Origin: Candidatus Enterousia sp.
Lineage (GTDB): Bacteria; Pseudomonadota; Alphaproteobacteria; Rs-D84
Assembly: GCA_045613315.1 (NCBI GenBank)
Contig: JAZLAV010000007.1
Location: forward strand, 1,785-65,784
Direction of reading: 5' to 3'
DNA length: 64,000 nt
Shown here: piece after piece, positions 14,308-27,169 of the stretch
How positions within the stretch are numbered: the stretch's first letter is position 1
Layout of the letters: every line of letters begins with the position of its first letter
Position numbers and translations under genes: made by a program
Notes under the pieces: model-generated
Databases searched by the model: none
Told to the model about the DNA's origin: nothing
What the model saw: the letters and a program-made list of their open reading frames with translations, nothing else

Positions 14308-14336
14308 TTGACTTTTATGTCAATTTGTGATATTAT
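14308..14336 (+). promoter_or_regulatory. sigma70-type promoter of the phage-like operon
   Basis: TTGACT (14308-14313), 17-nt spacer, TATTAT (14331-14336). Confidence 0.6.
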
Positions 14337-14362
14337 GTGAGACATCAAAGATAGAGATTTTG

Positions 14363-14418
14363 TCCGCACGAGAGTGTGGATTTTTTAATTCCGCGACCCA
14401 TTATCGGGTCGCTTTTTT
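14363..14418 (+). terminator. two tandem intrinsic terminators in the operon leader
   Basis: Hairpin 1 is TCCGCAC-GAGA-GTGTGGA followed by TTTTTT (14363-14386). Hairpin 2 is GCGACCC-ATTATC-GGGTCGC followed by TTTTTT (14393-14418). Both lie between the promoter and the first RBS. Confidence 0.65.
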
Positions 14419-14445
14419 ATTTACCAATCCACAGGAGAAAGAATA

Positions 14446-14865
14446 ATGGAATTGAACATAATATCAAATCCAGATGTCACCCAATGTCCCGCGTATAAAA
14501 TTGCGCGCGTTATATATGCAGAAACATATATGCCAACATTACCAGCAGTCGAAGCGATGGCGTCAATGATTTCCAATATTGCCAAACAATCAAATCGTGA
14601 TGTTGTTGATGTCGTTGATGATGTTGATATATTCGGGGCCGTTGATTCGAAATCGCCGCGTCATAAATATATGAACGTTTCGGTATCGAACCGCGCGTTC
14701 CAGATGTGTGTGCGTGTTGCAAAACGTATGTTGCGTGGTGTGTTGCCGGATAAATGTTCCGGCGCAACGCGATTCCATCGGGCGGACGAATTGCCTGCGT
14801 GGGCGATGGCACGTGGATATATTGCCGATATTGATGGATTACTGTTTTACATAATGGGGGAATGA
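14446..14865 (+). CDS. cell-wall hydrolase (SleB/Hydrolase_2-like), putative endolysin
   Basis: ARVIYAET..., ...GATRFHRADELPAWA... and YIADIDGLLFY follow the SleB-type hydrolase pattern. RBS is AGGAGAAAG. Confidence 0.6.
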   Translation: MELNIISNPDVTQCPAYKIARVIYAETYMPTLPAVEAMASMISNIAKQSNRDVVDVVDDVDIFGAVDSKSPRHKYMNVSVSNRAFQMCVRVAKRMLRGVLPDKCSGATRFHRADELPAWAMARGYIADIDGLLFYIMGE

Positions 14866-15059
14866 TGCGGGGTGATTTTATTCGTGGCGGAATGTTGTCA
14901 GATAAAAAATCATATGTGATGTTTGGGGTCGGTGTATTATCCGCCATTGCATCATATTTGGTTGGCGACACCGATGTATTCGTTATGTGCCAGGCAATAT
15001 TTACATTGGCGGGTATGTATTTTATTCATAAATCTGATAATACAAACAAAGGGAAATGA
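14862..15059 (+). CDS. holin-like small membrane protein (2 TM)
   Basis: Its start overlaps the hydrolase stop (ATGA). Two hydrophobic segments, VMFGVGVLSAIASYLVG and VFVMCQAIFTLAGMYFI, and a charged C-terminus. Confidence 0.5.
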   Translation: MMRGDFIRGGMLSDKKSYVMFGVGVLSAIASYLVGDTDVFVMCQAIFTLAGMYFIHKSDNTNKGK

Positions 15060-15060
15060 T

Positions 15061-24583: not shown

Positions 24584-25430
24584 GTCAGATATAGTATATA
24601 AAAAAAATGGTTTTTCAACGCCTTTTTTGCGGGGTTATAAAACCCTTAAAATGCCCATTGTTGACGACAATGGCGTCCCCACATGGCCGGAATTGTTCCC
24701 GTCCGATAAAATCGATGAATTGCGGGCCACGGTGGGCGCACGCCATTTCGCGTCCCAGATGATGTTGTGTCAAATTTCGCCCGAACGTGTGCGGTTGGAT
24801 CCGGGGGCAATGCACATTTATGATGACGATTTTAATCCGCAAAATGCGCGTATTGGTGATAACGCAATAACGGGGGTGTCTGTGTATTGGGATCCGTCGT
24901 TGGGGCGCGTTAATTCGGACGGCAGTGTGTGCGTTATCGTGTATCGCGATGACAAATCGCATCGGATTTTTATTCATGATGTTTTGTATTTGATAACCGA
25001 TGACAACGACGATCACCCAATGGCGACCCAGTGTAATCGAATACTGGATTTTTTATCTGGGCACGGAATGCGGCGTATATGTGTTGAAACAAATGGAATC
25101 GGAAATGCGTTGCCGGAAATACTGCGTGATTGTGCGCGACATCGCGGATTCGACATAGTCGTACAAAATGTTGTGAATAACAAACGCAAATCAGACCGCA
25201 TTATCGATGCTTTGGAACCGGTTTTATCAACGGGGCGCCTGTATTGTGCGTCGCGCGTACAATCGACACCACTTTTTGCGGAAATGATTGGTTGGTCACC
25301 GATTGCATATACAACACACGACGACGGCATAGACGCCGTTGCCGGGGCAATTTTGGCAACGCCCAACCCGGTACATCCGTTAACGCGTGCCGGGCGCACA
25401 TTCGTGGGAAATACAAATTTCACAATTTAA
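24582..25430 (+). CDS. terminase large subunit, lid plus nuclease half
   Basis: WPELFPSDKIDELRATVGARHFASQMMLCQ (lid), then the RNaseH-like nuclease motifs VYWDPS, CVETNGIGN and THDDGIDAVAGA. Its ATG overlaps the dnaB ATG within CATG. Confidence 0.75.
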   Translation: MSDIVYKKNGFSTPFLRGYKTLKMPIVDDNGVPTWPELFPSDKIDELRATVGARHFASQMMLCQISPERVRLDPGAMHIYDDDFNPQNARIGDNAITGVSVYWDPSLGRVNSDGSVCVIVYRDDKSHRIFIHDVLYLITDDNDDHPMATQCNRILDFLSGHGMRRICVETNGIGNALPEILRDCARHRGFDIVVQNVVNNKRKSDRIIDALEPVLSTGRLYCASRVQSTPLFAEMIGWSPIAYTTHDDGIDAVAGAILATPNPVHPLTRAGRTFVGNTNFTI

Positions 25431-25456
25431 TAACACACAAACCAAAAGGAATAACA

Positions 25457-26689
25457 ATGCAACAGAATATAAAACAATTGGAACAAATGTACCGGCGTGC
25501 GCTGGATATGCGCAATCCATGGATAAAACGTTGGGACGCGGCGCGGCGATATACAATGCCGACAACCGATGAAGATATTGCAACACTTTTTGATTCGACG
25601 GCGGCGGATGCGGTGGACAACCTGGCGGCATCGATGTATTCGCTTATTACACCACCGGAATCGTTGTGGATGACATTGGTCCCCGAAAGTGACGCATCGC
25701 CAAACGCAGAAATTGCAACGGCGGCATTTCGGGCAAACCTGAACGATTCTAATTTTTATACGACGATACACCAATGTTATATGGATTTAGTCGTAATGGG
25801 AACGGCGTGTTTGTTTATGTCGGAAAATCCGATTGGTGCCGCGTCTGCATTTTCGTTTACGGCGATTCCGATGTACGATATTGCGATTTTGCCGAACGCG
25901 GTATTTCACACAACGTCAATGCGTGCATCCGATGTCGCAACGCGTTTTCCACAATGGACACCACCGACCGATTTGCGGGATAAAATTGCGCGCGACCCGG
26001 AAATGCCACTAAAATTGGTGCAAAGTTTGAACGGAACCGAATTTGTTGCGTGGTTGGATGTTGGTGGCGATATTGAAAACAACATTGTATCAACCGGCAC
26101 ATTTGAAACCAATCCGTATATTATTTTCCGTTGGTCGCTGGCCAGTGGCGAATTATACGGACGCGGTCCCGTTATGCGCGCGTTGCCCGATATCAAAACC
26201 GCGAACAAAGTTGTGGAATTGGTGTTGAAAAATGCAACCATTGCGGTGTCTGGGATATGGATGGCGGACGATGATGGTGTAATTAACCTGGATAATATAA
26301 ATTTGACCCCGGGTGCCATTATCCCCAAAGCAGTTGGTTCGTCGGGTTTAACACCGTTATCGTCGGGCGCAGATTTTGATGTGTCGCAATTGGTGTTGCG
26401 TGATTTGCGCGAACGTATTCGCCACGCATTATTGGCGGATCGATTGGGATTGCTTTCGGACAAAGAAATGACCGCAACGGAAATATTGGCGCGAAATGCG
26501 GATATGATGCGTATTTTGGGCGCGACATATGGACGGTTGTTGCACGAATTTATTCGCCCGTTGGTTGACAGGGGGCTTCAGATTTTGTCGCGTCGTGGCA
26601 TTATTGACCCGATTATTTTGAACAGTGATGCGGAATTAAAATACATTGCACCAATCACACAAATGGCATTGACCGAAAATACGATTTAA
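25457..26689 (+). CDS. portal (head-to-tail connector), T7 gp8 type
   Basis: RBS AAAAGGAATAACA. It sits right after terL, the 410-aa size fits, and the N-terminal LEQMYRRALDMRNPWIKRWDAARRYTMP pattern resembles podoviral connectors. Confidence 0.65.
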   Translation: MQQNIKQLEQMYRRALDMRNPWIKRWDAARRYTMPTTDEDIATLFDSTAADAVDNLAASMYSLITPPESLWMTLVPESDASPNAEIATAAFRANLNDSNFYTTIHQCYMDLVVMGTACLFMSENPIGAASAFSFTAIPMYDIAILPNAVFHTTSMRASDVATRFPQWTPPTDLRDKIARDPEMPLKLVQSLNGTEFVAWLDVGGDIENNIVSTGTFETNPYIIFRWSLASGELYGRGPVMRALPDIKTANKVVELVLKNATIAVSGIWMADDDGVINLDNINLTPGAIIPKAVGSSGLTPLSSGADFDVSQLVLRDLRERIRHALLADRLGLLSDKEMTATEILARNADMMRILGATYGRLLHEFIRPLVDRGLQILSRRGIIDPIILNSDAELKYIAPITQMALTENTI

Positions 26690-26701
26690 TGGGGGGGATA
26701 A

Positions 26702-26893
26702 ATGAACGATGTTGAAAAGAACTTTGCGCGGACATTTATGTCGCCGGCGGGACGTGCGGTTATGGCGCATTTGCGAAAAATAACAATTGAACGTGTGTTG
26801 GGGCCAAATGCCACCGACGCAGAATTAAGGTGGTTGGAAGCCCAACGCGCACTTGTTCGTCAAATTGAGCAATTATCAGAAAGGGGCAAGTAA
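26702..26893 (+). CDS. small phage protein (Bbp19-like?)
   Basis: 63 aa. FMSPAGRAVMAHLRKITIERV...LRWLEAQRALVRQIEQL resembles the Bbp19 family as I recall it. Confidence 0.4.
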   Translation: MNDVEKNFARTFMSPAGRAVMAHLRKITIERVLGPNATDAELRWLEAQRALVRQIEQLSERGK

Positions 26894-26908
26894 AATTGTC
26901 ATATAAAA

Positions 26909-27169
26909 ATGTCAAACAAACAAAATACGTTATCAAATCTGGTTGATACATTACGGGGCGGGTGGTTTTTAATTGCATTTATTGCCGGTATGGTTTATTG
27001 GGTTGCCCGTCAGGATTTTTCACTGGACGATTTATCGCGTGCAAACGAACGCATAACGGCATTGGAAAACCGCACCACGATTTTGGAAACAGGCATCGGG
27101 CAATTGCAAATGAAAATTGACGGAATCAAAGAAGATGTCACACTTATAAAAAGTGCGGTTATAAAATAA
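26909..27169 (+). CDS. membrane-anchored coiled-coil protein (i-spanin-like or holin-like)
   Basis: N-terminal TM GWFLIAFIAGMVYWVA followed by heptad-like ITALENRTTILETGIGQLQMKIDGIKEDV. Confidence 0.45.
   Translation: MSNKQNTLSNLVDTLRGGWFLIAFIAGMVYWVARQDFSLDDLSRANERITALENRTTILETGIGQLQMKIDGIKEDVTLIKSAVIK

Follow-up and report, generated by a model that had tools for sequence, protein, structure and literature searches.

The DNA analyzed here (hereinafter, the window) is a 64,000-nucleotide stretch of contig JAZLAV010000007.1 (assembly GCA_045613315.1) from Candidatus Enterousia sp.; all coordinates given below are window positions. Next to birA, the window contains a compact set of genes for the head, tail, DNA packaging and lysis functions of a T7-type podovirus, encoded on the plus strand (14446-27169) and interrupted by an operon on the opposite strand that includes the gene for the replicative helicase DnaB (Table 1). 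The whole locus spans 12.9 kb, of which about 9.6 kb are phage genes. A first-pass annotation of the window, made from the sequence alone, had proposed that this is a domesticated particle locus rather than a prophage remnant, and the synteny, intact reading frames, selection and co-divergence described below bear out this proposal. Enterousia belongs to the uncultured order Rs-D84, whose genomes are generally smaller than 1 Mb; the bacterium is short of numerous pathways and transporters and presumably relies on partner organisms (PMC12306168).

Gene identities were assigned by profile searches (Pfam, PHROG, NCBIfam and PDB sequences), and matches to profiles and to sequences of solved structures agree with every gene class named in the first-pass annotation; its gene coordinates hold overall, with the starts of the scaffold, capsid and portal genes corrected to 15061, 16366 and 25457, respectively. 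By profile matches, the T7-type morphogenesis set is complete for the gp8-type portal, the gp9-type scaffold, the HK97-fold capsid protein, the gp11 adaptor and the gp12 nozzle. The capsid profile matches a phage major capsid protein of known structure (PDB 9eg4, 2e-33; an entry with seven chains), and the fibre anchor matches the N-termini of tailspikes and fibres in the PDB. Two small genes occupy the same positions in related phage contigs, namely, the gene for the 76-amino acid (aa) protein, 3' of the capsid gene, and the Bbp19-like gene, after the portal gene.

The endolysin is 34% identical (2e-18) to a Hydrolase_2 (SleB-type) protein encoded in a sister cluster from Muricoccus (see below). 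The 65-aa holin-like protein has no family match in the profile searches and is conserved in 68 loci, with a ratio of nonsynonymous to synonymous substitution rates (dN/dS) of 0.11. The 86-aa protein encoded at the end of the cluster also has no family match in these searches; judged from its sequence features, it appears to be spanin-like. The gene for the Lys/Ala/Pro-rich protein is located between the scaffold and capsid genes in 65 of the 65 loci that hold both (83-160 aa, with some open reading frame (ORF) calls extended by upstream read-through) and is absent from the sister clusters of Rhodospirillales and Acetobacterales. Its Pfam match to the HC2 family is only compositional; the protein could be a DNA-condensing component of the head, or else a nucleoid protein of the host whose gene was carried into the operon by chance. 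The hairpin that follows the capsid/76-aa gene pair holds a position that we take to be analogous to that of the T7 terminator after gene 10, and by analogy with T7, the hairpins around this pair would result in a high dosage of the capsid protein.

Table 1. Coordinates of the particle locus, the embedded dnaB operon and possible accessory genes in the window
Feature	Position	Strand	Evidence and remarks
Sigma-70-like promoter match just after birA	14308..14336	+	Consensus scan, 10/12 plus TG extension; weak
Hairpins, probably the birA terminator	14362..14412		Follow the promoter match
Endolysin, 139 aa, SleB/Hydrolase_2-related	14446..14865	+	phrog_938
Holin-like membrane protein, 65 aa	14862..15059	+	Two hydrophobic segments; start overlaps endolysin stop (ATGA)
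T7-type scaffolding protein, 218 aa	15061..15717	+	PF05396 Phage_T7_Capsid, 1.5e-9
Lys/Ala/Pro-rich basic repeat protein, 99 aa	15826..16125	+	(AKKPxAKK)n; MAFTFLK N-terminus, Cys-containing C-terminus
GC-rich hairpin and T-run before capsid gene (terminator/attenuator)	16155..16174	+	Terminator scan, 8 pairs, 7 GC
Major capsid protein, 271 aa, HK97-fold, HTVC010P/T7-like	16366..17181	+	PF19821, 1e-70
76-aa head-module protein	17206..17436	+	phrog_18004, 3e-12; dN/dS 0.04
Strong hairpin after capsid/76-aa gene pair	17442..17464	+	Terminator scan, 9 pairs, 8 GC
Tail tubular protein A (gp11-like adaptor), 172 aa	17493..18011	+	phrog_394, 6e-30; PF17212, 5e-4
Tail tubular protein B (nozzle), 574 aa	18015..19739	+	phrog_376, 8.5e-82; PDB 8ck1 'Tail Nozzle', 4e-33
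116-aa basic helical protein	19767..20117	+	Located where T7-like phages encode their first internal virion protein (gp13/14 in T7); dN/dS 0.11
Tail-fibre anchor, 181 aa, gp17-N-like, no distal domain	20133..20678	+	phrog_1640, 8e-16
Large terminase, N-piece (terN; Walker A, Walker B, motif III)	20623..21264	+	NF033889 positions 2-191, 227 bits
219-aa all-helical lineage-specific protein, last gene of dnaB operon	21265..21924	-	No family
348-aa protein, two Xre-type helix-turn-helix domains	21955..23001	-	PF01381 twice; candidate regulator
Host replicative helicase DnaB	23027..24583	-	NF006606, TIGR00665
Large terminase, C-piece (terC; rest of ATPase, RNase H-like nuclease)	24582..25430	+	NF033889 positions 214-500; PF22530
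Portal, 410 aa, T7 gp8 type	25457..26689	+	PF12236, 2e-83; T7-type PDB portals 6r21, 3j4a
Bbp19-like small protein	26702..26893	+	PF25181, 1e-11
86-aa protein, i-spanin-like	26909..27169	+	N-terminal transmembrane helix and coiled coil, read from sequence; dN/dS 0.07
Bidirectional hairpin terminator common to cluster and convergent ppiD	27172..27193	both	Terminator scan
Small Mtd_N fibre-type protein, separate locus	30871..31125	+	PF18454, 1.6e-16; phrog_9648 tail protein; possible accessory fibre gene
190-aa Mtd_N fibre-type protein, between 794-aa gene and ackA	36723..37295	-	PF18454, 1.9e-11; possible accessory fibre gene
794-aa protein, directly upstream of the Mtd_N gene	37404..39788	-	Conserved across Enterousia, 45-69% identity

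Conservation and selection across the relatives

A search for relatives of the capsid protein, in which each GTDB species was represented by one genome, detected at least 567 relatives, and the best 80 were used for the comparisons. These 80 capsids share 77-90% identity; all come from Ca. Enterousia or from metagenome-assembled genomes of uncultured Alphaproteobacteria from animal and human guts, including one closed chromosome of 958,618 bp. In all 80 species-level genomes, the cluster is syntenic beside birA, and the gene order is identical wherever the locus is long enough: birA, lysin, holin, scaffold, Lys/Ala/Pro-rich protein, capsid, 76-aa protein, tube A, nozzle, 116-aa protein, fibre anchor (where present) and terN, followed, on the opposite strand, by the genes for the 219-aa protein, the helix-turn-helix protein and DnaB, and then by terC, portal, Bbp19-like protein and 86-aa protein. 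The split of the terminase and the embedded dnaB operon are common to all 80, and no relative among these was found that lacks the cluster at this site or carries it within a complete prophage. Of the two flanks named in the first-pass annotation, birA upstream and ppiD downstream, the latter is found in both loci that reach that far (L003 and L043). In 13 loci, the downstream flank is rearranged such that a pair of genes encoding YraN and a 48-aa lipoprotein, rather than ppiD, directly follows the 86-aa gene; all 13 lack the fibre anchor. In a 14th locus (L016), the lipoprotein gene is located upstream instead, near lpxI.

The lengths of the ORFs are nearly constant, with short copies only at contig ends, and no frameshift was detected in any of the approximately 15 phage-derived ORFs (60-80 species). 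The capsid protein shows the highest mean pairwise identity in the region (0.85), followed by the portal and DnaB (0.80 each), LpxI (0.76) and the terN product (0.75). The dN/dS values, calculated by the Nei-Gojobori method for the 64 species pairs with the least saturated synonymous sites, are in the range of 0.04 to 0.17 across the cluster: 0.05 for the capsid, 0.06 for terN and the portal, 0.09 for terC, 0.11 for tube A, 0.12 for the nozzle and 0.17 for the lysin; the respective values for the host genes dnaB, lpxI and rlmD are 0.05, 0.04 and 0.12, and those for birA and the scaffold are unreliable owing to start-codon choice. Thus, the signs of decay that the first-pass annotation had named as a reason to abandon its proposal, that is, frameshifts and relaxed selection, are not seen. 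That the capsid protein evolves slower than the replicative helicase is strong evidence of the importance of a virus-like particle to these bacteria.

The synonymous distances (dS) of the cluster genes are saturated, like those of host genes, and the pairwise distances of the cluster genes among species track those of the flanking lpxI and rlmD (Pearson correlation coefficients of approximately 0.7-0.8) as well as lpxI and rlmD track each other. The core-like composition reported in the first-pass annotation is apparent in codon usage, where the correlation with host genes is 0.95, compared to 0.72 for the low-GC island at the far end of the window, and only approximately so in the GC content, which is slightly lower in the cluster (0.433 vs 0.469 in host genes). 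No integrase, excisionase, replication or early genes were found in or next to the cluster, either in the window or in the 80 loci, and no flanking repeats were detected around it; the locus does not present the hallmarks of a functional prophage, namely, a complete set of virion genes, genes for replication and early functions, and an integrase or excisionase together with attachment (att) sites. Taken together, the fixed site, the purifying selection and the lack of mobility genes characterize a vertically inherited, immobile, domesticated phage module, and we consider it highly probable that the cluster is indeed domesticated and maintained by selection. The retention of this amount of phage DNA in a genome of less than 1 Mb implies that it is put to use.

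These observations bear directly on two other explanations. That the locus is a live or recent temperate phage, or a satellite, with a fixed integration site, and that the identity among the genomes results from recent horizontal spread, is exceedingly improbable. The capsid, portal and nozzle do have relatives in true phages of 32-35 kb, and fragments of the locus are filed as viral in IMG/VR; however, the mobility, replication and early genes are missing in all 80 loci, flanking repeats were not found, the single integrase of the window is encoded 28 kb away in a compositionally distinct island, an essential host gene is embedded in the cluster, and the saturated dS, the distances that track the flanks and the host-like codon usage all speak against recent arrival. 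The second explanation, a functionless remnant of a defective prophage that could not be deleted because the essential dnaB gene landed inside it, is very improbable. It would account for the presence of a host gene within the terminase gene, for the breakage of the terminase into two ORFs and for the lack of a small terminase, ejection proteins and, often, the fibre anchor. Linkage to dnaB, however, guards against large deletions but not against point mutations, and yet there are no frameshifts; genes up to 9 kb away from dnaB (lysin and scaffold) are equally kept in these strongly reduced genomes; and the low dN/dS, the conservation of the capsid above that of DnaB and the invariant catalytic residues of the terminase are not those of a decaying locus. 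The selection data thus already largely refute the functionless remnant.

The two-piece terminase and the embedded dnaB operon

The large terminase (TerL) is of the T7 type (NF033889, termin_lrg_T7, 500 positions) and is encoded in two ORFs 3.3 kb apart. When joined, the two products align colinearly and as a single piece with the intact TerL of an Acinetobacter podophage (8e-57). The site of the split immediately follows ATPase motif III and coincides with a variable loop, where intact terminases carry additional sequence and many insertions and deletions. The two pieces contain no sequence beyond the model positions given in Table 1, with no part lost or duplicated, which rules out an intein or split intein. 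The Walker A, Walker B and motif III residues are invariant in 75 species, and the D/E/D residues of the nuclease in 70.

The dnaB gene that the first-pass annotation had placed inside the cluster encodes a protein of the host type: it scores above the cut-offs of the bacterial equivalog models (598 vs 540 bits for NF006606; 504 vs 385 for TIGR00665) and below the cut-off of the phage_DnaB model (399 vs 499 bits). The start codons of the divergent dnaB and terC genes overlap in the palindrome CATG (24581-24584) in all species examined, and terN and the 219-aa gene, which converge, abut at their stop codons (21262-21267; TAA/TTA in the window), with no direct or inverted repeats at the junctions. 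These overlapping and abutting gene ends leave no room for intergenic promoters or terminators. As far as can be judged from the gene layout, this implies that transcription of the particle genes and that of the host replication operon interfere with each other: the terC-portal block can be transcribed only from a start within the antisense dnaB operon or by read-through over it, and the switch-on of the late genes may therefore disturb dnaB expression. The two companions of dnaB in the operon are conserved as well. All 1209 homologues of the 219-aa protein come from this one uncultured lineage of Alphaproteobacteria; the protein matches no family in Pfam, NCBIfam or PHROG, and the PDB profile search gave only non-significant E values of 0.6-1; its AlphaFold2 model is all-helical (pLDDT 84) and has no Foldseek match (best E = 1.2). 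The 348-aa protein with two helix-turn-helix domains has a mean identity of 0.79 and a dN/dS of 0.07.

A more distant alphaproteobacterial locus, L097 (IMGVR_UViG_2820136564_000001; protein MCL2629518.1 of a metagenome-assembled genome), with a capsid 72% identical and a GC content of 51%, also has its terminase split around dnaB. In this case, dnaB abuts terN, an 834-aa gene without a family match fills the remainder of the insert, and no portal gene follows terC. The same split with a different, larger insert suggests that the split is old and that the insert has been remodelled. The structure of the junctions also bears on the possibility of a programmed rearrangement, whereby the 3.3-kb dnaB segment would be excised or inverted in particle-producing cells and the terminase rebuilt, in the manner of skin, nifD or phage regulatory switches. 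The precise removal of 21265-24581 would restore an intact terminase, and a cell in which dnaB is lost or disturbed would be consistent with lysis as the end point. Nevertheless, a rearrangement of this kind is very unlikely: apart from the lack of repeats at the junctions, there is no recombinase in the insert, the reading frame of the N-piece is closed by a stop codon and that of the C-piece opens with a separate ATG, the split falls within a variable loop, and L097 carries a different insert at the same split. Being permanently split, the terminase is a natural experiment in dividing the packaging motor.

Phage relatives, sister clusters and possible function

The nearest cultured phage is the Pelagibacter podophage Hodr EXVC031P (45% identity for the capsid and 32% for the portal), and other phages of the HTVC010P type come next. 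A fragment of 5 kb from human faeces encodes a capsid 64% identical to that of the Enterousia cluster and has the normal order portal, scaffold, capsid, tube A. The capsid relatives in IMG/VR fall into three tiers. Those with at least 79% identity are fragments of the Enterousia locus itself, dnaB included, that have been filed as viruses and may inflate virus counts and host-virus links in gut Alphaproteobacteria. The tier with 46-53% identity consists of 22-33 kb contigs with a phage-like gene order. HTVC010P-type pelagiphages and T7-like Autographivirales share with the Enterousia cluster the capsid, portal, scaffold, Bbp19-like protein, tubes A and B, fibre anchor and T7-type TerL; they differ in their size of 32-40 kb and in the presence of replication genes, large internal or ejection proteins and a single terminase gene. 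Furthermore, their order is portal, scaffold, capsid, whereas the portal block of Enterousia has moved behind the terminase.

The intermediate tier (54-61% identity; GC content of 66-75%) consists of contigs of typically 10.6-13 kb with the gene order portal, Bbp19-like, scaffold, capsid, tube A, nozzle, small protein, fibre, small gene and intact terminase. An exact look-up showed that these capsids are those of cultured Roseospira, Rhodospira trueperi, Rhodospirillum centenum SW, Rhodocista and many Muricoccus/Roseomonas, and one capsid cluster formed at 90% identity spans more than 10 named species. The corresponding sister clusters of Rhodospirillales and Acetobacterales span about 12-13 kb (that of R. 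centenum lies within CP000613.2, 3181309-3202127) and encode, besides T7-like head and tail proteins, a lysin and an intact TerL; no integrase and no genes the size of those for gp15/16 were found in them. They share with the Enterousia cluster the families of the portal, Bbp19-like protein, scaffold, tube A, nozzle, post-nozzle protein, gp17-N fibre, TerL and Hydrolase_2 lysin, and differ in having the canonical T7 order, an unsplit terminase and no internal dnaB. In these clusters, a small gene overlaps the terminase start (the position of the small terminase, TerS), and full-length fibres or tailspikes, with a pectate-lyase domain, are encoded. In Muricoccus pecuniae and M. aerilatus, the cluster is found at the same site, after asd, lysS and mprF and beside an S24-type repressor gene (LexA/CI-type); the dS values for this pair are similar in the cluster (0.37-0.89) and in the flanks (0.35-0.55), and the dN/dS of the cluster, 0.12-0.33, indicates purifying selection. 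It looks as if these clusters form a wider, previously undescribed family of domesticated podoviral clusters. Because R. centenum, Roseospira and Muricoccus/Roseomonas are cultivable, particle production and DNA content are directly testable in these bacteria.

The explanation that we favour, and to which we assign a slightly better than even chance, is that an HTVC010P/T7-type phage module was fixed in the ancestor of Ca. Enterousia and has been kept vertically under purifying selection, working in the manner of a gene transfer agent (GTA). Selection on the scaffold, capsid, portal, both terminase domains, adaptor, nozzle and lysis genes is most simply read as maintaining DNA-filled particles that are released by lysis. 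Under this scenario, a subpopulation of cells would express the particle operons; T=7-like heads would be built from the scaffold and capsid at the portal; the two pieces of the terminase would associate and, devoid of the specificity conferred by a small terminase, would package host DNA by a headful mechanism; a short tail would be completed by the adaptor and nozzle, together with the fibre anchor in the genomes that have one; and the endolysin, holin and spanin-like protein would release the particles by lysis. More speculatively, particle production might be coupled to the shut-down of replication via the antisense dnaB operon. The separate components of this explanation differ in strength: the production of DNA-containing particles is fairly probable, whereas gene transfer is a possibility whose chance we put somewhat below even.

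Among the functions that the first-pass annotation had listed as missing, including an integrase, replication genes, a small terminase, internal core proteins and a distal fibre domain, none is recognizable in the cluster; the lack of an integrase and of replication genes is as expected for a GTA. Several observations weigh against a GTA-like role. There is no recognizable small terminase and no homologue of the sister-cluster genes in the TerS position, so that packaging is expected to lack sequence specificity, in keeping with how GTAs operate; such a role for the 116-aa protein is not supported, as the protein shows no similarity to the products of these small genes. Neither are there ejection proteins of the size of gp15 or gp16 in the cluster, where only the 116-aa protein, with weak profile similarity (E = 0.003) to the 146-aa post-nozzle protein of Muricoccus, follows the nozzle; in Hodr, the proteins after the nozzle consist of 159, 783 and 1247 aa. 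Accordingly, the crossing of the recipient envelope by DNA is left without an explanation. The 794-aa protein was considered as the missing ejection protein, but searches of the PDB and BFVD yielded only non-significant, generic coiled-coil matches. The fibre anchor is present in 39 of 71 genomes and absent in 32; it is apparently ancestral and has been lost at least 8 times independently, which would be odd if adsorption to recipients was essential. That a terminase in two pieces works is an assumption. The seven chains of 9eg4 are the number expected for a T=7 asymmetric unit, and the related phages carry 32-35 kb; a T=7 head, with a capacity of about 35 kb by comparison with these relatives, could hold the 12.9-kb locus, so that the head would probably not be smaller than its own gene set, as it is in classical GTAs. 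Finally, Enterousia is uncultured and is not mentioned in a gut study of DNA packaged in virus-like particles (VLPs).

The same gaps are compatible with a serious rival, although we consider it rather unlikely, namely, that the domesticated particle serves a purpose other than gene transfer, such as altruistic lysis, a killing or decoy particle, or a vehicle to a partner organism. The evidence of conservation applies equally to this possibility, which is further favoured by the lack of ejection proteins and a small terminase, by the repeated loss of the fibre anchor and by the presumed dependence of the bacterium on partners (PMC12306168). Against it, the conservation of the portal, both terminase domains and the nozzle indicates that DNA packaging and an exit channel are under selection, and neither is needed for lysis or a decoy. 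With respect to a killing particle, genes for a capsid, portal or terminase are not known in R- and F-type tailocins; the Enterousia cluster, by contrast, conserves its head and packaging genes most strongly. PBSX, a myovirus-like particle that kills sensitive cells, and the tailocins resemble the cluster in being chromosomally fixed particles made through lysis of a subpopulation.

A GTA-like function, our preferred reading, invites comparison with RcGTA (Rhodogtaviriformidae), which delivers DNA to the recipient periplasm. RcGTA resembles the Enterousia cluster in that its phage head, tail and packaging genes are chromosomally fixed and, throughout a large clade of Alphaproteobacteria, are passed on vertically and maintained by purifying selection, in the lack of integrase and replication genes, in the release via lysis genes and in the possible dispersal of accessory fibre genes to other loci. 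The differences are substantial: in RcGTA, TerL is encoded by one gene and is accompanied by a small terminase; its head of about 4 kb is smaller than its own cluster, whereas the T=7-type capsid of Enterousia is expected to exceed its cluster; and transfer by RcGTA has been demonstrated, whereas transfer by the Enterousia system is a possibility. RcGTA is, moreover, siphovirus-like, with a long tail, a tape measure and a prohead protease (see, in part, PMC12946183), whereas the Enterousia set is podoviral, of the T7/HTVC010P type, with a scaffold, tubular proteins A and B and a gp8-type portal. For FpGTA of Faecalibacterium, a Firmicute, long-read packaging data from VLPs show fragments of 8-9 kb (PMC12946183, Nat Commun 2026). 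No split terminase or embedded dnaB is described for FpGTA, which is set beside the Enterousia cluster here by its description only (PMC12946183). The statement of the first-pass annotation that all known GTAs derive from siphoviruses is thus no longer quite true, and the morphological class of the Enterousia particle is no longer unprecedented among GTAs. What is unusual is the T7-type ancestry, the clade-wide fixation in reduced genomes, the conserved two-piece terminase interleaved with an essential operon and the existence of cultivable carriers of sister clusters. In the literature covered, to which most subscription journals do not belong, we found no account of this cluster in Enterousia or Rs-D84, of a T7-like GTA in Alphaproteobacteria or of a terminase split around dnaB.

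To our knowledge, few independent domestications of phages as GTAs have been described, and nearly all the well-studied ones are of long-tailed ancestry. Here, at least 80 species have preserved an undamaged short-tailed, T7-type module while losing the greater part of their genome; if DNA is transferred, the particle would provide a route for recombination in a lineage that is prone to genetic decay. We tentatively suggest, as a conjecture that could well fail, that the clusters represent a second, ancient alphaproteobacterial GTA lineage derived from a T7/HTVC010P podovirus, fixed in Rs-D84 in the form with the two-piece terminase and represented by unsplit sisters in Rhodospirillales and Acetobacterales. 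Complete clusters of the RcGTA type are, as far as we know, uncommon in these two orders.

Possible accessory fibre genes and the rest of the window

Two fibre-type genes reported by the first-pass annotation at 30.9 and 36.7 kb, outside the cluster, both encode proteins with an Mtd_N domain, as was found in the present searches. The order 794-aa gene, Mtd_N gene, ackA is retained in near relatives and in L174, another Enterousia, whereas in L175 the Mtd_N gene is absent from this place. A metagenome scan with the 190-aa Mtd_N protein detected three loci only. No direct repeats were found near the Mtd_N genes, and no reverse transcriptase, as in diversity-generating retroelements, was detected among the scanned ORFs, which are a subset of those in the window. 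In L174 (3410-4695), a second Mtd_N gene adjoins a gene for a resolvase/invertase, an arrangement that recalls the invertible fibre switches of Mu and P1. The structural model of the 794-aa protein consists of confidently predicted helical coiled coils, with a disordered hydrophobic stretch at residues 440-494; the protein matches no family.

Between the cluster and the 36.7-kb locus, the long ORFs that overlap 28.6-29.4 and 30.0-30.4 kb are spurious, and the real genes are tpiA, a small lipoprotein gene and yraN. The plus-strand ORF at 30014-30415, considered as a gene that accompanies the loss of the fibre anchor, was likewise rejected because the conserved signal belongs to the lipoprotein gene on the opposite strand; no Rfam family matches at 30014-30415. 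The lipoprotein gene (48 aa; 30005-30151, minus strand; lipobox LAAC) is located downstream of yraN (30221-30580, minus strand).

The low-GC island (47800-64000; GC content of approximately 0.36) encodes a tyrosine integrase (55703-56911), the only integrase in the window, along with an AAA_14/DUF4143 ATPase, a GH108 lysozyme that also has a peptidoglycan-binding domain, and two proteins of the DUF488 family; the island is a mobile element in its own right and is unrelated to the cluster. Elsewhere in the window, a gene for an ATPase of the PilB/PilT type (T2SSE) is located at 7157-8134 on the minus strand, and in L097, a pilin-like (N_methyl) gene (10850-11317) lies beside terC. These two genes hint at a type IV pilus or competence apparatus, which would be relevant if the DNA reaches the periplasm only.

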